From Patescibacteria group bacterium (GTDB lineage Bacteria; Patescibacteriota; Minisyncoccia; Phycocordibacterales; JBAYGS01): 49,351 nucleotides of DNA. Shown here piece after piece: positions 425-26,794 of this stretch (the first letter of the stretch is position 1; the number at the start of each line of letters is the position of its first letter). The translations under genes were made by a program, and so were the position numbers. The stretch spans positions 7,099 to 56,449 of the forward strand of contig JBBTSQ010000025.1 in the NCBI GenBank assembly GCA_038078755.1, written 5' to 3'. The notes under the pieces are model-generated. The model searched no databases and was not told the DNA's origin. It saw only the letters and a program-made list of their open reading frames with translations.

Positions 425-1054
425 TTAGATTCTATCTAACACTACAACCTCGGCTTCTTTGCCTTCCAAATCTTTTTTCTTGAGCGTCAATTTATCTATC
501 GGCTTCACTCCCTCCTCGCCCGCTTCTTTCAAAAACGCTTTGAGCTCCTTACTTCCCGCCTCGCCATAGTGCATCGGAATAATCAGCTTTGGCTCGAGCG
601 CCACCGCAAGCTTGTACGCTTCTGCAGGAGAAAGCACCCCGTCGCCGCCGATCGGCACAAACAAAATATCAATATCATCGATCGCCCCTTTTGCATCAGA
701 TGAAAGCTCGGCACCGAGCGCACCCAAAAAACATAAGTTCATATTTTCAAGCGTCACACTATAGATAGTATTGATACGCTCTTCACCGCCTTCCAAAGAT
801 TTCGATGGCACGCCTTTGATAAACACACCTTTGACCTCATATTCTCCGGGACCGACAATCGCAAACGGCGTGCGATCGCCGTGAGTCACTTGCTCAATAC
901 CGTTGTAGTCGCGAGTATTGAGTGACACCAACGCAATGTCCGCCCCAAAACGCGTCTGGGGCAATTTTGATTCTTTGGAAATGGGATTAAAGGCTAGAAT
1001 CTTCTCGCCAAACTGCACCTTAAAAAATTCAGAGCCGTGGTAGGTGATGATCAT
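425..1054 (-). CDS. MBL-fold metal-dependent hydrolase (UPF0173-like)
   Basis: 209 aa. The N-terminus MIITYHGSEFFKVQFGEKILAFNP and the later LFVPIGG..PMHYG pattern are typical of the small beta-lactamase-fold hydrolase family. Confidence 0.65.
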   Translation of the reverse strand: MIITYHGSEFFKVQFGEKILAFNPISKESKLPQTRFGADIALVSLNTRDYNGIEQVTHGDRTPFAIVGPGEYEVKGVFIKGVPSKSLEGGEERINTIYSVTLENMNLCFLGALGAELSSDAKGAIDDIDILFVPIGGDGVLSPAEAYKLAVALEPKLIIPMHYGEAGSKELKAFLKEAGEEGVKPIDKLTLKKKDLEGKEAEVVVLDRI

Positions 1055-1120
1055 GATACTAAGAGTATAATAAAAAAACTGACAACATACAACTTACAAT
1101 CAGAAAAAAGGAGAAAGTAT

Positions 1121-1158
1121 GGAAAAAGAAAAAACGCGACCGTTGAGTTGGTCGCGTT
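1121..1158 (-). terminator. rho-independent terminator of the 1185-1823 ORF
   Basis: Stem AACGCGACC/GGTCGCGTT, followed on the minus strand by a T-run. Confidence 0.6.
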
Positions 1159-6195: not shown

Positions 6196-6295
6196 CAATA
6201 AATCCCCCATTGTGCAAAATATCGATCGGTAGTACAATAGCGCCACTCTCTGCTGTATTTCTGACAGGCACGATTGGTTTCCTAGCCCATATTGT

Positions 6296-6901
6296 ATGTC
6301 TCTCGACCCCATCTCACCCACCCCAACCGAATCGCTCACCCATCCCACTCGCAAAAGTGAGTGGCAAGAACTCCTCCGTTTTGCGCTCACCGTACTTATT
6401 GTTGTCGTTCCTATCAGACTCTATGTTGTCCAGCCATTTATCGTCTCTGGCGAATCAATGCACCCAACTTTTAGTGATGGCGAATACCTCATCGTTGATG
6501 AAGTAAGTTACCGTTTCCAAAAACCAACCCGAGGCGAGACTATTATTTTCCGCCCACCACTTAATACCAAAAAATTCTACATCAAACGTATCGTCGGACT
6601 GCCGAAAGAGACTATCTCAATCTCCGACACAAAAGTTATCATCAAAAATGCCGACAATCCGGACGGATTCATTCTCGACGAATCATATGTCAAAGTCCCG
6701 TGGTCAAGCACACTCACCAAAACGCTCGGCGACAATGAATACTTTGTCATGGGCGACAATCGATCCGCCAGCTCGGATTCACGAGTGTGGGGAGCATTGC
6801 CAGAGGACAACATTATCGGCCGACCGCTCGTCCGTCTGTATCCATTGAAAACCATCGAGGCATTTCCGGGCACAAGCATGCAAAAGACGTCTACCAATTA
6901 A
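6296..6901 (+). CDS. lepB: signal peptidase I
   Basis: N-terminal TM, SGESMHPTF serine box and GDNRSASSDSR box. Confidence 0.9.
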   Translation: MSLDPISPTPTESLTHPTRKSEWQELLRFALTVLIVVVPIRLYVVQPFIVSGESMHPTFSDGEYLIVDEVSYRFQKPTRGETIIFRPPLNTKKFYIKRIVGLPKETISISDTKVIIKNADNPDGFILDESYVKVPWSSTLTKTLGDNEYFVMGDNRSASSDSRVWGALPEDNIIGRPLVRLYPLKTIEAFPGTSMQKTSTN

Positions 6902-6911
6902 CTCGCGCCGT

Positions 6912-8144
6912 ATGAAAAAACAGAAAAAAACAATCACGCCAAAAGAATCAAACACTGCCTACAGCGACATCGACACGGCAGCCGAAGTGGCGGTCTACTA
7001 CGGCTTCACTCCGCAAAAAACGCCCACCATCAAAAAAGATGACATGGCGCAAGCAAAACACATTGAAAGCGCGGACGAAAAAAAGGCACTTCCTCTCGGC
7101 TGGGACACCTTAAGTCTCGAGGGACAATCAGCGCTCATCCGCGAATACGTCGATAACAATTGGCATAATTTACCGCAACCGCTCACCCACTATCACAAGG
7201 GGCCGTTTGCCATCGACGGCAAACCGGCAAAAAAAGAAAGTCGAGAGATGGAATGCTATCTTGAAATCATCGGCACGCACAAAAGCATCGCCGAAGCGAT
7301 TATTATCGAGACCGCCATCGCCATTTTGAAAGAAGAAGGTTATGACGATCTCCATCTTGAGATTAATAGTATCGGCGATCGAGAATCATTTTCTCGTTTT
7401 ACCAAAGAACTGACTGCCTACTATCGAAAGCATATCAATGACCTCCCCGCCGCGTGCAGACAAGCGATGAAATCGAGTGTCTTCAGTCTCTTGTCGTGCA
7501 GTGAACATGAGACGTGTAAAAAATTGGCGGTAGATGCACCGCAATCAATCAGCTTTCTCTCTGAAGCCAGCCGGCATCATTTTCAAGAAATTTTGGAGTA
7601 TTTAGAGACGCTCGATATTCCCTACACTATCCAAAATTTACTAGTCGGCAATCCGAGTTTTTCATCGGGGCCAGTATTTGAAATCAGAAATGATGGTTGT
7701 GCGCGAGGTAAAGGCGTCGCCCCGCTTGCGGTCGGCTGTCGATACGACGGTCTGGCCAAAAAGCTCGGCGCCAAAAAAGAAATTCTGGGCGCGTGCGCCG
7801 TGCTCCATTTCAAAAAGCCGACCGGTGAAAAAGCCAATCATAAAGTCAAAAAACCGGAAGTGTATTTCATCCAGCTTGGGTTTGAAGCGAAACTAAAAAG
7901 TCTCAAAGTGATCGAGGTACTCCGCCAAGCCAAGATCCCAGTGCATCAAGCGCTCTGTCGCGATCGCATGGCCACCCAAATCGCCATCGCCGAGAAATCA
8001 AAAGTGCCATTCCTCTTGATTATGGGACTGAAAGAAGCGATGGAAAACGCGGTCATCGTGCGCGACATGACCGACCGATCACAAAACACAATCAAAATTG
8101 AAGATGTGCCGGCGTATCTGAAGAAGTTGAAAGCGCAGAAGTAG
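6912..8144 (+). CDS. histidyl-tRNA synthetase family protein, divergent (HisRS/HisZ-like)
   Basis: HisRS-like order INSIGD...PVFE...GCRYDGL, plus a C-terminal anticodon-binding-like domain (VYFIQLG..FLLIMG). Several class II catalytic motifs look substituted. Confidence 0.65.
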   Translation: MKKQKKTITPKESNTAYSDIDTAAEVAVYYGFTPQKTPTIKKDDMAQAKHIESADEKKALPLGWDTLSLEGQSALIREYVDNNWHNLPQPLTHYHKGPFAIDGKPAKKESREMECYLEIIGTHKSIAEAIIIETAIAILKEEGYDDLHLEINSIGDRESFSRFTKELTAYYRKHINDLPAACRQAMKSSVFSLLSCSEHETCKKLAVDAPQSISFLSEASRHHFQEILEYLETLDIPYTIQNLLVGNPSFSSGPVFEIRNDGCARGKGVAPLAVGCRYDGLAKKLGAKKEILGACAVLHFKKPTGEKANHKVKKPEVYFIQLGFEAKLKSLKVIEVLRQAKIPVHQALCRDRMATQIAIAEKSKVPFLLIMGLKEAMENAVIVRDMTDRSQNTIKIEDVPAYLKKLKAQK

Positions 8145-17351: not shown

Positions 17352-18365
17352 ATGTTATCTACTTACATACAATCAAATAAAGATTCTAGTGATTTCTTGA
17401 TAAAAGCCAAACTAGCCACCGGCTCATGGCAAATATTATCCAAAATAACAGGGGTGTCCCCAAGAACTCTTCGTAATTGGTACTTATGCCAATCTTCCAT
17501 ACCCCTCGATAGTCTCAAACTACTAAGTAACCACTTGGGAGTGTCTCTGCCCAAATATAAAGCAATCGACATATTGAGACTAAAAAGAAACGCTGCAAAG
17601 AGAGGCGGCCTAAGACGCATAGCACTTTATGGTAACCCCGGGACAATCACAGGGAGGATAAAAGGTGCATTAAGATCAATAAGGACGCAATCGAAAAATC
17701 CCTATTCACCTTTTATTCAGAAAAAAATCAGCATACCCAAACGTTCATCCCAATTAGCTGAATTTGTTGGAATTTTATTAGGAGATGGTCATGTTGGTAA
17801 ACGACAAATTATAATTTCAATAGGGGCGGACGAATATGGCTATACAAAGTATATTTCTAATTTAAGCTTCAAATTATTTCAGTACCGCCCATCGATAAAA
17901 AAGAAAAACGGAGTAGAGGTGTACACACTAGTCTTTTCTCGTACAGCCCTGGTGACATATATAAAAAAGATCGGACTAACTGATTCACACAAAGTAAAAT
18001 CGCAAAGTAATACTCCCCTTTGGATTCGAAATAACAAGAATTATTCCAAGGCGTGTGTCCGAGGATTATTTGACACTGATGGCTCGTTTTTTATTGATAG
18101 ACACTTAATAAAAAATTCGCTATATTACAATGCGGGTATTGCGTTCACTAATTACTCACTGCCACTACTTAAATTTTTCTACTTTACACTGGTCGCTCGA
18201 GGATTCCATCCAACAGTATCGAGTGGTAAAAATGTGTTTCTGCGACGAGATAACGAAATACGCTACTTTTTCAAAGACATTGGGAGTAATAACCCTAAAC
18301 ATTTAAGAAAATTTAGTGAATTTGTAAACAAATATCCCAAAGGAAAGGTACCGAAGAGGTCATAA
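17352..18365 (+). CDS. double-motif LAGLIDADG homing endonuclease with N-terminal HTH
   Basis: LAEFVGILLGDGHV and CVRGLFDTDGSF motifs. HTH-like ILSKITGVSPRTLRNWY. The last 24 nt overlap tRNA-Ser. Confidence 0.85.
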   Translation: MLSTYIQSNKDSSDFLIKAKLATGSWQILSKITGVSPRTLRNWYLCQSSIPLDSLKLLSNHLGVSLPKYKAIDILRLKRNAAKRGGLRRIALYGNPGTITGRIKGALRSIRTQSKNPYSPFIQKKISIPKRSSQLAEFVGILLGDGHVGKRQIIISIGADEYGYTKYISNLSFKLFQYRPSIKKKNGVEVYTLVFSRTALVTYIKKIGLTDSHKVKSQSNTPLWIRNNKNYSKACVRGLFDTDGSFFIDRHLIKNSLYYNAGIAFTNYSLPLLKFFYFTLVARGFHPTVSSGKNVFLRRDNEIRYFFKDIGSNNPKHLRKFSEFVNKYPKGKVPKRS

Positions 18366-23564: not shown

Positions 23565-24188
23565 TCAGACAAACGCCACCATGCGATCGGGCGGGATGAT
23601 CGGAGGCATCGGGCGACCGGACACATAGGCTGCTTCCGCCTCAAGATCACGTTGCTCACGAACAGTCAGTAACCGTCTTTCACGGGGCGGCCAAAACGCC
23701 CAGTGATTCTGGGGTTGGAAGGGATAGATGTCCACCGAGACCTTGGTTGGGATCCGGTTGCCTACCACACCCCCACTCGTCACTTTGACCACCCGATCAA
23801 ACATCAGAAGTTCCGGTGTGTGTTTGATATGTTCACACCACCACGCCTTAACCTCTTCGATCTTGGCAGTGATTGACATCCAATCCACTTTTTCGCCGGA
23901 CTGATCCGCGCGATCGGCCAGGTGCCAAAAGATCTCAAAATGTTCTTCATACCAGCGATTGGGGTCGCCGTCAAAGTAAGGATCAGTGATTAGCCGTTCC
24001 TCGAGAGTATCCCGACCATCGTTACGAATCGTCTCGAGGTCGAGAGTATGGAACGGTCGGAAGGCAACGTATTCAAGCGTGTGTCGAACAAAATCACGCT
24101 CGACATCCACTCGTCCATCCGGCCCATTGATTGCCTGGATAAGCCACGGACACTGCCCGACCAATTCTTTCCACTTGTGCCATTTCAT
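23565..24188 (-). CDS. orphan hypothetical protein (207 aa)
   Basis: Start re-chosen at the ATG giving MKWHKW, preceded by AAGGAG. The longer ORF would cover its own promoter. Trp-rich, no family recognised. Confidence 0.5.
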   Translation of the reverse strand: MKWHKWKELVGQCPWLIQAINGPDGRVDVERDFVRHTLEYVAFRPFHTLDLETIRNDGRDTLEERLITDPYFDGDPNRWYEEHFEIFWHLADRADQSGEKVDWMSITAKIEEVKAWWCEHIKHTPELLMFDRVVKVTSGGVVGNRIPTKVSVDIYPFQPQNHWAFWPPRERRLLTVREQRDLEAEAAYVSGRPMPPIIPPDRMVAFV

Positions 24189-24273
24189 ACTGACTCCTTT
24201 CGCCATATAGGCTTTGGATTGTGAAGAACGCCGGCTTGGGGTGTACCCAATATCAACCGTATGTTCTATGTGT

Positions 24274-24302
24274 ATTATAGCATATCTGAATATAAAATGC
24301 AA
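24274..24302 (-). promoter_or_regulatory. promoter TTGCAT-17-TATAAT
   Basis: The minus strand reads TTGCATtttatattcagatatgcTATAAT. It is preceded by the palindrome AAGAATATGACTCTATAGAGCCATATTCTT. Confidence 0.55.
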
Positions 24303-24351
24303 GTATTTAATGCAAAAAGATAAGAATATGGCTCTATAGAGTCATATTCTA

Positions 24352-24390
24352 AGACAACAGCTCAACCAGGGACTGGTTGAGCTGTTGTCT
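24352..24390. repeat. perfect 17-bp hairpin
   Basis: AGACAACAGCTCAACCA-gggac-TGGTTGAGCTGTTGTCT. Confidence 0.8.
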
Positions 24391-24403
24391 GCAATCACCT
24401 TGG

Positions 24404-24569
24404 GTGCTGGGACCCAGGTGGCCGAAGACGGCCGGATCGGTCACGACTCTTGCCTCGTCGTCACTCGGCAAGGTCTCGACCCCAGCTCGCGGTTTCGCTT
24501 ACTAGCGAAACATCGCTCCGCTTTTCGAACCTGGGTCGCGAGCAAAGTAGTTTGCTCGCTTCCCAGCAC
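24404..24569 (+). other. tRNA-Phe-derived mirror element (tRNA-like multi-helix segment)
   Basis: The left end is an exact 16-nt copy of the tRNA-Phe 3' end. The right end is the inverted T-loop/acceptor part, interrupted by hairpin GCGAGCAAAGTAGTTTGCTCGC and preceded by hairpin GTTTCGCT..AGCGAAAC. Confidence 0.6.
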
Positions 24570-24608
24570 AAAATACAAAATCCGCCGATAAGGCGGATTT
24601 TGTATTTT
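24570..24608. terminator. perfect 17-bp bidirectional hairpin abutting the tRNA-Phe 3' end
   Basis: AAAATACAAAATCCGCC-gataa-GGCGGATTTTGTATTTT. Confidence 0.75.
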
Positions 24609-24609
24609 G

Positions 24610-24682
24610 TGCTGGGACCCAGGTTCGAACTGGGGACCCTTCCCTCTTCAGGGGAATGCTCTACCAACTGAGCTATCCCAGC
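24610..24682 (-). tRNA. tRNA-Phe (anticodon GAA)
   Basis: GCTGGGATAGCTCAGTTGGTAGAGCATTCCCCTGAAGAGGGAAGGGTCCCCAGTTCGAACCTGGGTCCCAGCA. Confidence 0.9.
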
Positions 24683-24775
24683 GTTATTAACTTACAACAA
24701 ACAACTGACAATCCAGACGCTTTGGTCGGGACTCCAACCAAAGCGTCGGAGCTTACAATTAAAAATACAATAACA

Positions 24776-25063
24776 TTATCTTCCGATTGATTTCAAAATC
24801 TCCGGAATGTCGGCAAACTGACTCTGCGCGCTTTTGACCGTACTGATACCGTCATTGACACCACTATAGACTTGTCCGAGCTGCTCCAAGTACGGCTGAA
24901 TAAAATAGTACGAACCAAATGACAGGCCCAAGATGACCAACCAGTAGAACAAACGCATAATCGAAGAAATTCGCGCGCTATTTCTAATCTTACGCAATAA
25001 CGTATTGTTCTCCTGCGTCAACGAAAGCGTCCGCTCTAACAATGATCGTTCCTCTGGGGTCAT
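24776..25063 (-). CDS. small membrane protein (95 aa)
   Basis: Start at the ATG giving MTPEERSLLERT; one or two TM helices (LFYWLVILGLSFGSYYFI). Confidence 0.45.
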   Translation of the reverse strand: MTPEERSLLERTLSLTQENNTLLRKIRNSARISSIMRLFYWLVILGLSFGSYYFIQPYLEQLGQVYSGVNDGISTVKSAQSQFADIPEILKSIGR

Positions 25064-25246
25064 GGGAATGAATATAGCATAATTGGAGACGACAGACAAT
25101 AAGACATTTAATACCTCGCCCATTAACAACCCATAGCACCAAGAAGATCATTCCAAAAAAGTCGAGTGAATTATTCTGAATACACCAATGAAAAAGACTC
25201 CCCTCACAACTACTTGCGGGGAAGCCTTGATGTACGCACAAGATGC

Positions 25247-25585
25247 TCAAGCTGTCAGGAGGAGTCTCTTAAATTTTGATTGCCATCTGGGACTATTTTG
25301 CCACTCATATCCCTTGGAACGCAACACCTCAGCAATATTTACCATCGTACGCGACCCAATCTCAGAAGCAGGGATACCCAGTAACTGAGGAAACTGTTTC
25401 TTGAGAGCTGGGATAACACAATCCCGCATCACCTGAGTAAAACCGGTTACAGAGTAGTAGTTGATACCAGGAAAGAGTGCGGAAACGAGTGGTATCAGCG
25501 CGTCAATACTTTTGTCCTTATCCTTCAAGGCGTCGTGTTTTTTGTCATTGACAAGCCACCAAATTACTACTATTTTGCATTTCAT
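25247..25585 (-). CDS. hypothetical protein (112 aa)
   Basis: ATG ORF; no motif recognised. Confidence 0.4.
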   Translation of the reverse strand: MKCKIVVIWWLVNDKKHDALKDKDKSIDALIPLVSALFPGINYYSVTGFTQVMRDCVIPALKKQFPQLLGIPASEIGSRTMVNIAEVLRSKGYEWQNSPRWQSKFKRLLLTA

Positions 25586-25711
25586 TTGATACCTCCGGTT
25601 TTGGGTTTAGGAATGTACTTACTTGAACCACAATAGTCCAAGATAGATTCCATTAAGATCATAGCATAAAGAAACAATTCTGTCCACCCAAAATTTAGCT
25701 TTATACATTTG

Positions 25712-25783
25712 TGCCCTCGGCCAGAGTTGCACTGACATTAGACCCTTAGGACGGGCCGGTTCTATCTGTTGAACTACGAGGGC
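25712..25783 (-). tRNA. atypical tRNA-Arg (anticodon CCU) candidate
   Basis: GCCCTCGTAGTTCAACAGATAGAACCGGCCCGTCCTAAGGGTCTAATGTCAGTGCAACTCTGGCCGAGGGCA. All four stems are good, but the D-loop lacks GG and the T-loop reads TGCAACT. Confidence 0.5.
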
Positions 25784-25825
25784 AATTAGCTACACCTGAG
25801 ACTATACCACTGATTCTCGTGAATT

Positions 25826-25861
25826 AAAAAGCCCCGTTCTGCGAAGCAGGACGGGGCTTTT
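25826..25861 (-). terminator. terminator after the nrdH-like gene
   Basis: AAAAGCCCCGTTCTGC-gaa-GCAGGACGGGGCTTTT. Confidence 0.75.
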
Positions 25862-25868
25862 CATGAAC

Positions 25869-26105
25869 CTATTTAACCCCCAGTACTGACTTCAATTCTC
25901 CCTCATCAAATCCCACCGTAAGCTTGCCGTCTATCTCAATCACCGGAACCCCCATCTGTCCGCTTTTCTCCACCATCTCCTTTCGCTTCTCCATATCAGT
26001 CGCCACATTATGTTCGGTGTACGCGATATTATGTTGCTTGAAAAACTCTTTTGCCATACCACAATAGTGACAAGTCGGGGTTGAATAGATAGTTACAGTT
26101 GCCAT
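25869..26105 (-). CDS. glutaredoxin-like protein (NrdH/Grx family)
   Basis: 78 aa with a CHYC redox motif after the first beta strand (TIYSTPTCHYCGMAKEFF). Confidence 0.8.
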   Translation of the reverse strand: MATVTIYSTPTCHYCGMAKEFFKQHNIAYTEHNVATDMEKRKEMVEKSGQMGVPVIEIDGKLTVGFDEGELKSVLGVK

Positions 26106-26162
26106 AAATGTTTACTTATATAATTTAATGAATAAGCTGGAATAGTATAGCATACATACTAT

Positions 26163-26285
26163 CTGTGCGGGTACCGGGAATCGACTATTACATAGTCAGG
26201 TGCTTTTCTCGTTTCGCAGACGAAACATAGAAAAGCCTTCCGATTCCCGCCGGAAGCAAAGCAGTTTGCTTCCTCACTCACACAG
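26163..26285 (+). other. tRNA-Gly-derived mirror element, homologous in design to 24404-24569
   Basis: Left arm CTGTGCGGGTACCGGGAATCG resembles the reverse complement of the tRNA-Gly 3' end. Right arm is TCCGATTCCCGCC + hairpin GGAAGCAAAGCAGTTTGCTTCC + TCACTCACACAG. Internal hairpin GTTTCG-caga-CGAAAC. Confidence 0.6.
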
Positions 26286-26308
26286 TCATTCGCTTCGCTC
26301 ATTACCTG

Positions 26309-26379
26309 TGCGAGTGGCGGGAATCGGACCCGCGCCCGATGCTTGGGAAGCACCAGTACTACCACTATACTACACTCGC
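26309..26379 (-). tRNA. tRNA-Gly (anticodon CCC)
   Basis: GCGAGTGTAGTATAGTGGTAGTACTGGTGCTTCCCAAGCATCGGGCGCGGGTCCGATTCCCGCCACTCGCA. Confidence 0.85.
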
Positions 26380-26419
26380 AACGTCATCATCCTAACATAC
26401 AGAAGTCGCCCCAAACAAT

Positions 26420-26794
26420 CTACCGTCGGAAAAGGCTTTTCAGTGCATCAAACGCGCTCGCCTTGGCTGGAACTACTTGCGTAGTCGTCCCCCGATCAAC
26501 TAACACCAGCATCTGTTCTCCTTCTTTTACCATGCCAAATTTCGTACGGATATCTGCCTCAATCCCCTCCTTTGTCTTTAGACGAGCAATGTCATTTTCT
26601 AATTGCCCTTTTCGAGACGACAACTCGCTGTGTTCACGCGCAACATCTTGATAGGCAGTGGTGCTCACCTGATATTTTTGATAGGCGCTGTAGGATGCTT
26701 TAGCGAGTATTCCCACAAGCACTACAAGTAGTACCACCGACAGTCGGGAGTATACTATTCGGCGAACTTTCTTACGGTGTTCAAACTCACGCAT
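26420..26794 (-). CDS. septum formation initiator (FtsB/DivIC family)
   Basis: N-terminal TM plus coiled coil, and a KEGIEADIRTKFGMVKEGEQ segment typical of the family. Confidence 0.65.
   Translation of the reverse strand: MREFEHRKKVRRIVYSRLSVVLLVVLVGILAKASYSAYQKYQVSTTAYQDVAREHSELSSRKGQLENDIARLKTKEGIEADIRTKFGMVKEGEQMLVLVDRGTTTQVVPAKASAFDALKSLFRR

Follow-up and report, generated by a model that had tools for sequence, protein, structure and literature searches.

Behind the 3′ end of the tRNA-Gly(CCC) gene in the window (the whole 49,351-nt stretch of DNA that was analysed) lie an inverted copy and a second, direct copy of that end, with hairpins between them, and a sister arrangement lies behind tRNA-Phe(GAA). 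What such an arrangement is, and how its arms come to match the neighbouring gene, is the question that this locus raises. An earlier note had read the two loci as mirrors of tRNA ends carrying the same two inserted hairpin modules and had ascribed them to a templated or site-specific process rather than to independent duplications. On the evidence below, we lean towards the reading that what lies behind tRNA-Gly is one integrated member of a family of small, ORF-less cassettes of CPR (candidate phyla radiation, Patescibacteria) that insert at the 3′ ends of genes.

Results

Layout of the Gly element and its sister

Since both host tRNAs are encoded on the minus strand, each element lies 3′ of its tRNA, on the tRNA's own strand, contrary to the placement first proposed. 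In the tRNA sense, the order is gene end X, one or more hairpins, inverted X′, a three-way-junction core, and a second, direct X; at the two window loci it runs as spacer, X′a, hairpin, X′b, core, and direct copy (Table 1). The arms and both hairpin modules of the Gly mirror are all present where the earlier note had placed them.

Table 1. Features of the tRNA-Gly and tRNA-Phe elements, in the sense of the host tRNA
Feature	Position	Strand	Sequence or fold	Basis
tRNA-Gly(CCC), host gene	26308–26379	−		ARAGORN; Rfam tRNA model, 62.7 bits
Spacer (apex), tRNA-Gly to inverted copy	26286–26307	−	contains GAGCGAAGCGA	
X′a of Gly element, inverted acceptor 3′ strand and trailer	26274–26285	−	CUGUGUGAGUGA	
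HP1 of Gly element	26252–26273	−	GGAAGCAAA-CUGC-UUUGCUUCC	direct reading, folding, pattern match
X′b of Gly element, inverted T loop and T-stem 3′ strand	26239–26251	−	GGCGGGAAUCGGA	complementarity to tRNA
P2 helix of Gly element	26203–26235	−	CUUUUCU/AGAAAAG, AU bulge	folding; pattern match; RNAalifold, 14 type-A copies
P2 tip hairpin of Gly element	26211–26226	−	GUUUCG-UCUG-CGAAAC	within P2
P3 of Gly element, short hairpin with GUA triloop	26183–26197	−	GACUAU-GUA-AUAGUC	folding
Distal direct copy of X, displaced ancestral tRNA-Gly 3′ end	26163–26183	−	CGAUUCCCGGUACCCGCACAG	
tRNA-Phe(GAA), host of sister element	24609–24682	−		ARAGORN; Rfam tRNA model
Apex hairpin of Phe element, terminator-like	24570–24608	−	A tract, GGCGGA stem, U tract	repeat search and folding
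X′a of Phe element	24561–24569	−	GUGCUGGGA	direct reading; palindrome search
HP1 of Phe element	24538–24559	−	GCGAGCAAA-CUAC-UUUGCUCGC	repeat search, folding, pattern match
X′b of Phe element, inverted T loop and T-stem 3′ strand	24524–24537	−	GACCCAGGUUCGAA	14-nt exact match
Type-B core of Phe element, P2 and P3	24438–24523	−		model R1, 97.9 bits, minus strand only
P4 of Phe element, extra hairpin	24420–24433	−	GGCCG-UCUU-CGGCC	folding; compensatory C-G to U-A in L015
Distal direct copy of tRNA-Phe 3′ end	24404–24419	−	ACCUGGGUCCCAGCAC	16/16 identical to 24609–24624

The proximal X of the Gly locus is the 3′ part of tRNA-Gly(CCC) itself, from the T loop to the trailer. The right arm, TCCGATTCCCGCC (26239–26251), is complementary at 13 of 13 positions (100%) to 26316–26328 within tRNA-Gly; this X′b forms the 5′ strand of the closing helix, and its AAUCGGA, the mirror of the odd T loop UCCGAUU, marks it as a reverse complement and not as a sense copy. 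The hairpin at 26252–26273, read on the plus strand as GGAAGCAAA-gcag-TTTGCTTCC, is directly followed by TCACTCACACAG (26274–26285), and the corresponding X′a has two mismatches to the present tRNA-Gly end, while the version of X′a at another locus, L017, fits the L017 tRNA. The spacer is homologous to those of L017 and of a further locus, L015, and GCGAAGC-type apices are similar in additional loci. The left arm (26160–26183) repeats, over 24 nt in direct orientation and at 83% identity, the stretch 26303–26326, which on the minus strand holds the 3′ end of tRNA-Gly and its trailer. It had been taken for a diverged copy of the present tRNA-Gly; it is instead the 3′ end of the ancestral allele seen at L017 and L198, abutting the ancestral flank.

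The core of the Gly element is of type A (model R2 on 26170–26273, 106.7 bits) and that of the Phe element, 1.7 kb away, of type B. In the Gly element, P2 differs from its L015 counterpart by a compensatory G-C to A-U change, and across the 14 type-A copies all five pairs of P3 covary. The Gly region folds far better than shuffles on both strands (z = −4.9, minus; −6.1, plus), and a terminator scan of the element gave a single weak site (26256–26237).

The Phe region stands out further from its shuffles (z = −10.4 and −9.7). Its P2 contains a GNA/GA internal loop, an AU bulge, and GUUUCG..CGAAAC, and its P3 pairs GGGGUCG with GUGACC around a variable inner hairpin. A perfect palindrome of 26 bp, reaching into tRNA-Phe, is centred on the apex hairpin, which to the eye looks like a bidirectional terminator; the stem of this hairpin is the same in L015 and its loop is different. 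Between the window and L015 Phe elements, all stems are identical, with compensatory changes in P3 and P4, and the outer flanks cannot be aligned. By this comparison, the Phe element, arms included, is under strong purifying selection over deep divergence. The flank behind the distal copy is unlike the present trailer of tRNA-Phe, and an exact-pattern scan of metagenomes returned no empty tRNA-Phe site and hence no filled/empty pair for this locus.

The sharing of two hairpin modules, on which the earlier note rested, is borne out. The hairpin core common to both elements, AGCAAAGNAGTTTGCT, occurs exactly only at 24541–24556 and 26255–26270 in the window, and GTTTCG(N)CGAAAC only at 24492–24511 and 26211–26226; 0.08 matches to the latter are expected by chance, and none of 100 shuffles contained two. 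Neither arms nor modules were found at the other seven tRNAs of the window. The suspicion that the modules are generic terminators fails, since in the window only the Gly and Phe loci carry them and, across the sequence collections, they accompany a conserved covarying core and locus-specific arms. They are, however, not separate modules put into a mirror but helices HP1, P2, and P3 of one structured unit, and the hairpin core thought to be conserved has a variable, covarying stem: in HP1 across the family only the CUGC loop is conserved, being present in 55 of about 85 copies. A loop–loop pairing of this CUGC loop with the internal loop of P2 was considered and discarded, as it shows no covariation.

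A family of elements at gene 3′ ends

The same cores were found at more than 150 loci, and the named records are nearly all metagenome-assembled genomes (MAGs) of CPR. A genome scan gave 54 loci, about 45 of them from CPR MAGs, and in about 32 the motif follows a same-strand tRNA at a distance of 7 to 200 nt; an independent, core-only scan of metagenomes gave 120 loci. Among the 107 core copies that could be assessed, 76 lie behind a same-strand tRNA or tmRNA, with 29 anticodon species represented, and only one has an opposite-strand tRNA alone. Judged by record titles, at least 10 candidate phylum-level lineages carry the family. The Gly and Phe elements are members of one family whose arms copy the neighbouring gene, as the earlier note had supposed, but the specificity for tRNA that it implied does not hold: tmRNA, topA (TopA), rpsI (S9), and rplE (L5) also serve as hosts. 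Nor is the full mirror the rule. In the mirror subtype, the conserved hairpin does split the inverted copy at the acceptor/T-stem junction, whereas the commonest subtype has merely a short inverted copy.

The unit is about 120 to 250 nt long and lacks an ORF, with 120 to 250 nt separating the repeats, and copy number is low: two in 49 kb here, and mostly one or two matches to the pattern in a genome record. Tandem arrays of elements occur behind single tRNAs. The idea that the newest copy in an array lies nearest the tRNA was dropped, as proximal and distal copies showed no consistent order of model scores, a comparison limited in part by mixed core types within arrays. Regulation of the downstream gene in cis is unlikely, because downstream genes vary by locus and some are on the other strand.

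Template switching that corrects quasipalindromes is a well-established source of mutation, and the long perfect palindromes centred on terminator-like hairpins, at the Phe apex and at L058, are what would be expected if such hairpins had been lengthened by replication template switching at tRNA genes. A purely mutational or chance palindrome is nevertheless hardly credible, being already contradicted by conservation at the level of the family: it can give neither the same covarying cores at more than 150 loci nor a distal direct copy nor the foreign topA end described below.

Strand-specific fold of the core

In the type-B core, 94% of cells are paired, against 75% in shuffles and 27 to 45% in slid controls, and 27 of 31 pairs show changes on both sides (covariation score 0.489 versus 0.159). 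RNAalifold on 14 type-A copies found 15 of 24 pairs compensatory. All full-length model matches fall on the strand of the host gene; on the antisense strand, the models match only the palindromic tip hairpin, and G·U wobbles in the core outnumber A·C (165 versus 51), so that the antisense was rejected as the functional strand. Of 84 sequences, 79 retain one particular G·U pair, and the conserved core also holds tandem G·A motifs. The conserved cores are not terminators.

The folded strand would be RNA co-transcribed with the tRNA, or else a folded single DNA strand. The G·U evidence does not settle the choice between RNA and single-stranded DNA because the G·T wobble is tolerated in DNA as well. 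Efficient transcription of the core is likewise not assured, because a terminator-like hairpin precedes it in the mirror copies and a scan found no promoter-like site for the element.

These features could also belong to a class of host small-RNA genes, not mobile themselves, that ride on tRNA, tmRNA, and ribosomal-protein transcripts and are released by RNase Z or RNase P-type cleavage. The arms would then be functional, X′ and X forming a closing helix that in the mirrors becomes an acceptor/T-arm-like minihelix, and new copies would arise by rare local duplication. The constant orientation directly behind highly expressed genes, the conserved G·U pair, the tandem G·A motifs and the heavy covariation, the small number of copies with no mobility gene linked, and the strong purifying selection on the whole unit, arms included, over deep divergence are all in keeping with such a class; so is the folding of the mirror copies, which in the tRNA sense gives an acceptor-like stem, a branch hairpin, and a T-stem-like helix. 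On the other side, local duplication fails to account for cores behind 29 tRNA species as well as topA, rpsI, and rplE, tandem accretion is left unexplained, the compact commonest subtype and the copies at protein genes are not tRNA-like, and several copies that are intact in other respects have a degenerate closing helix (L053 and, in the acceptor part, the Gly copy of the window). We consider a host RNA gene of this kind possible, if rather unlikely.

Arms and junction

X′ perfectly complements the first 11 to 18 nt of the proximal X and covaries with it. An exact match of at least 9 nt between X′ and upstream DNA is present in 46% of copies, against 4.7% of swapped-partner controls, and a direct repeat of at least 9 nt in 39%, against 2.8% of controls. 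In 18 of 28 cases, the distance between the start of the X′ match and the repeat boundary is constant, and the repeat is 5 to 80 nt long across loci. The arms differ at every host gene, and at six topA loci X′ follows the proximal copy. The junction sequences themselves vary with the host gene (TT|CGAA, CA|CAAAG, GA|CGAAAAC), with a motif NN|C(G/A)AA recurring in the T loop, tRNA trailer, topA, and rpsI, and GUGAC, at the 3′ end of the core, is similar to the bases that precede the junction in the host, GGGAC or GGCAC in topA. The arms would track the tRNA as copies of it, with the match maintained by selection for pairing and probably also by repeat conversion.

The same observations would fit a guide-directed homing element in which X′ acts as a programmable guide at the junction, the core is a catalytic or protein-recruiting module (as a ribozyme, or as a hairpin with a nick site at which a structure-specific enzyme, of HUH type or other, would act), and the replacement end makes insertion harmless. 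The perfect, covarying complementarity of X′ over 11 to 18 nt from the junction, the recurrence of the junction motif, the likeness of GUGAC to the host bases at topA, and a proximal gene end of foreign origin all suit such an element. Complementarity could, however, equally follow from the topology of insertion, as in an integron cassette; a carried guide explains homing to the same gene and not the acquisition of 30 or more different targets; and the core bears no likeness to any Rfam ribozyme or guide RNA. We know of no catalytic activity or partner protein for the core, and judge guide-directed homing quite unlikely.

Filled and empty sites

Three comparisons of filled with empty alleles show that the distal X is the ancestral gene end. 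At L198, an empty tRNA-Gly site, the tRNA end and its flank equal the distal arm of the window and the flank behind it (..TATGCTATACTATT), and the distal copy is identical also to the L017 tRNA end. The flanks of L199 and L019 are about 99% identical, and what separates the two loci is an element of 177 nt that has a perfect X′ of 18 nt and a repeat of 15 nt. At topA, the empty allele L200 encodes a protein 93% identical to that of L099, with a C-terminus, CSSKICP.HNPHK, that fits the distal copy of L099 and not the in-frame proximal copy CSNKTCAMHNPHK; the proximal in-frame copy at topA is foreign.

The earlier call of a templated or site-specific process therefore stands as far as an insertion-type process is concerned, which the filled and empty alleles bear out; between arms templated at insertion and arms that the element brings with it, the replacement end of foreign origin at topA speaks for the latter. 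A host RNA gene spread by local duplication would leave unexplained both this foreign end, with the ancestral end displaced, and the 177-nt presence or absence between nearly identical strains. Against a gain of cassettes, precise deletion between the direct repeats could also yield filled/empty pairs. It also speaks against the cassette reading that the whole tRNA-Gly of the window, and not X alone, is unlike the L017 allele (it is identical to the L015 tRNA-Gly at 72 of 72 positions), and an extra allelic-replacement event is therefore needed.

Searches for known classes and partner genes

With Rfam 15 at the gathering threshold, only tRNAs (and 16S in L125) were reached in the window and ten further loci, and at E ≤ 10 the region 24300–26450 gave merely chance matches of hairpin type. 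ARAGORN and RF00005 found the nine true tRNAs of the window and nothing at 26163–26307 or 24404–24608, even at E ≤ 10. The 5′ arms, being reverse complements that take in the T loop and the genomic trailer, led us to reject a tRNA pseudogene or tandem tRNA duplicate. An intron was rejected as well: judging from the sequence, a spliced tRNA-Gly would set distal CCCGG UACCCGC against the 5′ strands GCGGG and GCGAGUG, with mispairs, while the unspliced proximal tRNA-Gly is perfect. Literature searches, including one with the exact hairpin sequence, returned no description of the family, which is apparently undescribed.

No gene family recurred near the elements in more than five loci (all-against-all clustering of 647 ORFs from 47 loci), and no recombinase, nuclease, or reverse transcriptase linked to the modules, of the kind whose co-occurrence the earlier note had suggested looking for, recurred in those 47 neighbourhoods; by Pfam, none is among ten ORFs of the window that were searched. 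HUH nucleases and integrases linked to the copies were absent from the 47 loci and from these window ORFs, an IntI integrase or attI platform from the 49-kb window and the 8-kb neighbourhoods, and tnpA/tnpB/iscB-type ORFs from the vicinity of the copies; the HEARO model had no match. An IS200/IS605-derived element with a TnpB/IscB guide RNA was rejected, since a direct repeat is present and no partner ORF is nearby. No GTTRRRY was found at the element boundaries in a search for RYYYAAC/GTTRRRY core sites. A MITE or REP-type repeat was rejected, given host-specific arms, a repeat of 5 to 80 nt, and low copy number, and so was a phage or prophage origin, the element being essentially absent from viral contigs (one chance-like match in a first scan and zero in a second).

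These searches also bear on the possibility that the loci are scars of integrase islands or prophages, such as attL/attR remnants or a CIME-like relic, with the hairpins as leftover arm sites or terminators. A direct repeat that runs from the T loop past the tRNA 3′ end, as in att sites of T-loop-class integrases, a proximal copy that completes the gene while the old one is displaced, and tandem arrays would all be expected of such scars. Yet relics would not share, across CPR classes, a 90- to 110-nt core in which 27 of 31 pairs covary, nor be under purifying selection; there is no integrase nearby and no presence in viral contigs, an inverted X′ is foreign to att scars, and the core breaks the would-be crossover region. 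Scars are accordingly a very improbable explanation.

Discussion

The unit that we read as a cassette has four parts: a copy of the last 15 to 80 nt of the host gene (X), which now completes the gene; one or two hairpins, apex/terminator-like and/or HP1 with its CUGC loop; X′, complementary to the start of X or, in mirror copies such as Gly and Phe, to all of it; and the conserved three-way-junction core of P2 and P3. It would have been placed directly 5′ of the host's original X, which was thereby displaced downstream, giving a direct repeat that subsequently decayed. The route that we infer is recombination of a circular or folded single-stranded [X – hairpin – X′ – core] with the chromosomal X, where X′ would pair with X and close the junction; the crossover might fall at the P3/closing-helix junction, NN|C(G/A)AA, excision would join ..CCCGCCACTCGCAC directly to AGATAGTATG, and the integrating enzyme would be encoded away from the element. 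The topology would resemble that of an integron cassette with attC, or the Campbell integration of a tRNA-targeting island. Against a cassette speak the lack of a linked recombinase, HUH nuclease, or reverse transcriptase and of any free or circular form among the sequences seen, the low copy number, and the maintenance of orthologs under purifying selection, which suits a host-useful RNA gene at least equally; the acquisition of X and X′ for a new host gene also lacks an explanation.

Among the closest parallels are the tRNA/tmRNA islands and prophages of tyrosine integrases of the T-loop sublocation class, compared here from descriptions in the literature. These too target tRNA and tmRNA, have a repeat that extends from the T loop beyond the 3′ end of the gene, complete the gene with an element-borne copy while the ancestral end is displaced, and accrete in tandem at one gene. 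The present elements, however, measure 120 to 250 nt and not kilobases, have no integrase inside or nearby, carry X′ and a covarying core exactly at the junction, and occur also at the coding 3′ ends of topA, rpsI, and rplE.

Junction logic is shared rather with integron cassettes and attC, and with single-strand integration of the CTX-phage type, in which the first bases of the cassette complement the segment (R″) preceding its hairpin. The other strand of an integron cassette hairpin is made of the first bases of the next unit, and the topology of the elements matches this; as in attC, structure is conserved above sequence, the fold is strand-specific, and a perfect upstream and an imperfect downstream match are expected after insertion. 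Unlike integron cassettes, the elements lack RYYYAAC/GTTRRRY, IntI, an attI platform, and an ORF, their only cargo is a replacement gene end, the segment that pairs differs from one host gene to another, and they are scattered at gene ends and not gathered in one array.

MITEs and REP/BIME resemble the elements in being small, non-coding, and hairpin-rich, in lying at gene 3′ ends, and in having no enzyme of their own, but the arms here are locus-specific host copies in place of conserved terminal repeats, what is conserved is the interior, which shows compensatory changes and a fixed G·U pair, copies are few per genome, and the repeat spans 5 to 80 nt where those families make a fixed short duplication. 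As for tRNA-like or tRNA-linked RNAs (the tRNA-like domain of tmRNA, YrlA, and mascRNA-type RNAs), an RNA from a mirror copy would likewise stack an acceptor-like on a T-stem-like helix, and within a tRNA transcript its ends could be set by tRNA-processing enzymes; the elements are nonetheless missed by tRNA, tmRNA, and YrlA models, their 5′ strands are reverse complements that include the trailer, and the T loop is paired or replaced by the core. Self-processed elements that are co-transcribed with a strongly expressed host RNA gene, such as R2 (28S rDNA, with an HDV-like ribozyme), and the derivatives of IS200/IS605 with guide RNAs taken from the flank share with the elements a place in or behind highly transcribed stable-RNA genes, in host orientation, and a junction helix built from host-derived sequence. 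They differ in that the elements have no reverse transcriptase, TnpA, or TnpB nearby and no match to an HDV-like or other ribozyme, and show a long direct repeat of the host end, which those systems do not make.

The very small genomes of CPR bacteria are considered poor in mobile elements and known non-coding RNAs. The present family, which has no Rfam model, would rank among the most widespread structured non-coding elements of CPR, and its architecture unites island-like targeting of tRNA ends, the junction logic of integron cassettes, and an interior like that of a functional RNA. We put forward as a tentative and, in our estimate, unlikely idea that it represents a new class of enzyme-less, guide-bearing cassettes, in which the core would be catalytic or enzyme-recruiting and X′ a programmable guide, and which would bring a replacement 3′ end that is sometimes recoded. 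If so, essential tRNA, tmRNA, topA, and ribosomal-protein genes would be invaded harmlessly by a new guide- or structure-directed route of DNA insertion in CPR; should X′ be a guide, or the core a catalytic or recognition site, the insertion mechanism would be new and of interest for engineering. Even if the elements are merely RNA genes, the tRNA 3′ trailers of CPR bear a conserved RNA. The family also accounts for odd repeats and pseudo-3′-ends that confuse the annotation of tRNA, tmRNA, and topA in CPR MAGs, and covariance models for locating further copies are now at hand.

Mirror elements in the window

The arms and hairpins that the earlier note had described at tRNA-Gly were all found, at the positions collected in the table, and the hairpin core that it held to be common to tRNA-Gly and tRNA-Phe has exact matches in the window at these two loci only. 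The motif GTTTCG..CGAAAC likewise has no further match in the window beyond the two loci (chance expectation, 0.08 matches), and shuffled sequence folds far less well than either region. The window has a G+C content of 45.8% and nine tRNA genes, and such arms were looked for but not found at the remaining seven.

We denote the copied 3' end of the host gene as X and its inverted copy as X'; the X that completes the present gene is the proximal copy, and the second direct X beyond the core is the distal copy. For the Gly element, the minus-strand order is tRNA, 22-nt spacer, X'a (acceptor 3' strand and trailer in reverse complement), HP1 (a hairpin with a CUGC loop), X'b (T loop and T-stem 3' strand, likewise in reverse complement), the core helices P2, which bears the GUUUCG..CGAAAC tip, and P3, a GUA-triloop hairpin, and lastly the tRNA 3' end once more, in direct orientation. 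The AAUCGGA of X'b mirrors the unusual T loop of this tRNA, which marks X'b as a genuine reverse complement instead of a sense copy. The parts of the Phe element are arranged alike, except that a terminator-like apex hairpin stands before X', the core is larger, and a further hairpin, P4, is present.

Positions of features in the window and in related loci of other genomes and metagenomes (L numbers)
Feature	Position	Strand	Remark
tRNA-Gly(CCC)	window 26308-26379; L015 4404-4476; L017 4446-4517	minus (window)	T loop UCCGAUU, with C at the place of the near-universal U55
tRNA-Phe(GAA)	window 24609-24682	minus	
24-nt repeat	window 26160-26183, 26303-26326		83% identical
Complementary arms	window 26239-26251, 26316-26328		no mismatch
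16-nt hairpin core	window 24541-24556, 26255-26270		common to both loci
Type C copies or remnants	L199 796-972; L069 about 6290-6440; L015 7540-7572		
Two core copies	L125 2826-4801		directly 3' of tRNA-Ile
Long perfect palindrome	L044 about 7100-7219		contig end
337-aa ORF	window 17352-18365	plus	end overlaps start of tRNA-Ser (18342)
Perfect 18-bp hairpin	window 24352-24390		after Phe element
14-bp palindrome	window 24323-24350		after Phe element
213-aa ORF	window 23565-24206	minus	next after these palindromes
~110-nt insertion	L199 about 1015-1150		just upstream of glutaredoxin gene
Bidirectional terminator-like hairpin	window 25825-25863; L015 6152-6200; L017 4975-5012; L019 4322-4362		kept in all four
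378-aa oxidoreductase gene	L015 4661-5797		L015 only

Hosts, taxa, and core types

A genome-collection scan for both window motifs in series returned 54 loci, about 45 of them from MAGs of the candidate phyla radiation; approximately four chance matches are expected by arithmetic, and those in Enterococcus, Lachnospiraceae, Prevotella, and one Bathyarchaeota MAG are chance-like. The taxa, named as in the record titles, comprise Paceibacterota, Kaiser-, Nomura-, Lloyd-, Kerfeld-, Wolfe-, Taylor-, and Yonathbacteria, "Saccharibacteria," and Parcubacteria. Metagenomes, scanned in a second search that did not depend on HP1, gave at least 120 loci; about 25 of those listed are chance matches in G+C-rich coding DNA.

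A same-strand tRNA stands 7-200 nt ahead of the motif in about 32 genome-scan loci (at least 13 isotypes). Among the matches listed, a same-strand tRNA or tmRNA precedes 76 of 107 assessable core copies, with 29 anticodon species, while an opposite-strand tRNA alone accounts for one. The arms do track the neighboring tRNA, as had been proposed, matching at each locus whichever tRNA stands there. The hosts are not confined to tRNAs: copies also lie 3' of tmRNA genes, immediately beyond the ribosomal protein S9 stop codon, close to where the L5 gene ends, and within DNA topoisomerase I (topA) genes at their 3' end, the protein-gene hosts being confirmed by Pfam.

Type A, to which the Gly element belongs, has a small core with the GUA-triloop hairpin. 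In type B, that of the Phe element, P2 carries a 5'-GNA/3'-GA internal loop and an AU bulge and is followed by P3 (GGGGUCG..GUGACC). Type C, whose core contains ..GGGGTCGG.., TTAGAAACCGTGGGTTTCTAAAGAG, and GAGGTATCGAGGAGCGAGCGAGAT, keeps the layout X - apex - X' - core - X without HP1; a 33-nt remnant of it lies between copies 2 and 3 of the tRNA-Phe end in L015. Among the matches listed, the commonest form is compact: X' pairs across HP1 with the last tRNA bases and trailer and is followed at once by P2 and P3 and then by a short repeat (CACAA..). The HP1 stem varies and covaries (AGCCAA/UUGGCU, AGCGAA/UUCGCU, GUGCC/GGCAC, and others, in the metagenome matches listed), and 55 of about 85 listed copies retain its CUGC loop. 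Tandem arrays are frequent, A plus B pairs among them.

In L125, the tRNA-Ile ahead of the two core copies itself follows a 16S rRNA gene, so both copies would belong to an rRNA-tRNA transcript. The L044 palindrome has HP1 on each arm and a terminator-like center, which suggests two elements placed head to head, the contig stopping before the second core.

Conservation of the folded strand

Among those listed, matches to the covariance model of the type B core (R1) number 46 in loci of the genome scan and 94 in loci from metagenomes. Every full-length match is on the strand of the host gene, and opposite-strand matches cover the palindromic tip hairpin only. In 84 distinct type B sequences from the matches listed, whose alignments were fitted to the model and are therefore biased towards structure, the paired fraction of cells is 94%, as against 75% in column shuffles and 27-45% with slid partners; both-sided changes occur at 27 of 31 pairs, the covariation score is 0.489 versus 0.159, G·U pairs outnumber A·C (165 versus 51), and one G·U pair at the P3 base is kept in 79 sequences. 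Independently, MAFFT with RNAalifold recovered P2 as well as the P3 hairpin, with 16 of 22 pairs compensatory. For type A the figure is 15 of 24, with G·U pairs present too, and the Gly element reaches 106.7 bits with the type A model (R2); E-values of both models are rough, having been obtained with shortened calibration. No Rfam 15 family matches the element.

The flanking DivIC proteins of the window and L015 are only 68% identical and the outer flanks of their Phe elements are not alignable, yet all stems are identical except for fully compensatory changes in P3 and P4, other differences being confined to loops; the whole unit, arms included, is thus under purifying selection. A strand-specific, conserved fold containing G·U pairs points to a single strand as the selected entity; the simplest candidate is an RNA transcribed together with the host gene, a folded DNA strand being the alternative. 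In mirror copies, the terminator-like apex stands ahead of the core in the direction of transcription.

Inverted copies and empty sites

At topA loci, the in-frame C-terminus and stop codon are followed by HP1, an 11-12-nt X', the core, and a second copy of the coding end, which is a diverged version of the last ~75 nt of coding sequence and still an ORF. At all six loci, X' is fully complementary to the 11-12 nt with which the proximal copy opens, even as this stretch differs from locus to locus (GACAAAAACAA, CACCAAAACTA, GACAAAAACGA, CACCAAAACGA, CACAAAAACAA, and GACGAAAACAAT), and the distal copy fits X' less well. Among 106 copies from the matches listed, X' matches upstream DNA over at least 9 exact nt in 46% (4.7% in swapped-partner controls), and 39% have a direct repeat of 9 nt or more (2.8% in the controls); in 18 of the 28 cases that were informative, the repeat starts at a fixed offset from the X' match start. 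In the T loop, tRNA trailer, topA, and rpsI alike, the junction is NN|C(G/A)AA. We give little credence to mutational palindromes, and a guide-directed mechanism seems rather improbable.

Empty alleles indicate which copy came first. In L198, whose DivIC is 77% identical to that of the window, an L017-type tRNA-Gly is followed directly by ..AGACAAAGTTTTTATGCTATACTATT, which matches the distal arm and flank of the window, so that the distal arm is the ancestral tRNA end. L199 and L019 have identical tRNAs and ~99% identical flanks and differ by an element in L199, which is of type C, 177 nt long, and has a perfect X' of 18 nt and a repeat of 15 nt. L200 has no element, and its TopA shares 93% identity with that of L099; the L200 C-terminus, ..CSSKICPMHNPHK.., fits the distal copy of L099 (..CSSKICPNHNPHK..), not the in-frame proximal one (..CSNKTCAMHNPHK..). 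These comparisons show the distal copy to be the original host gene end, and the proximal copy now completing topA to be foreign. An exact-pattern metagenome scan found no empty site for the tRNA-Phe locus. The Gly locus of the window is a mosaic, with an L015-type tRNA and X'b and a distal arm of L017/L198 type; the whole tRNA differs from that of L017 within ~97% identical flanks, which implies an additional allelic replacement.

We lean towards a small integrative cassette that encodes a structured RNA or folded strand; a class of non-mobile host RNA genes is a less likely reading. A unit of X, hairpin, X', and core would recombine with the chromosomal X at its left edge, leaving X - hairpin - X' - core - X, in which the distal X is ancestral and the proximal X perfectly paired to X'. 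The topology is like that of integron cassettes with attC and of islands that target tRNAs by Campbell integration, but the element differs from both in having no conserved core sites, integrase, cargo genes, or presence in viral contigs. No integrase was found among the window ORFs tested or in the neighborhoods of 47 loci, two scans of viral contigs yielded one chance-like match and zero matches, and we give little credence to att scars. The part of the literature that was searched holds no description of these elements.

Neighboring features

The 337-aa ORF, between tRNA-Glu and tRNA-Ser, has a LAGLIDADG_3 homing-endonuclease-like domain (E = 7e-6) and a weak MerR-type HTH. The 213-aa ORF has no Pfam match and is missing from the syntenic L015 locus, where HSP20 stands directly instead. 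The separate insertion in L199 has 15-nt terminal inverted repeats (AACTTCTGTAATTAG), looks MITE-like, and is missing from the ~99% identical L019. A strong terminator-like hairpin (AAAAGCCCCGU..ACGGGGCUUUU) separates the glutaredoxin gene from tRNA-Arg. The oxidoreductase gene of L015, FAD-dependent, is flanked by the Gly element on one side and the glutaredoxin gene on the other; gene content varies directly beside the element.
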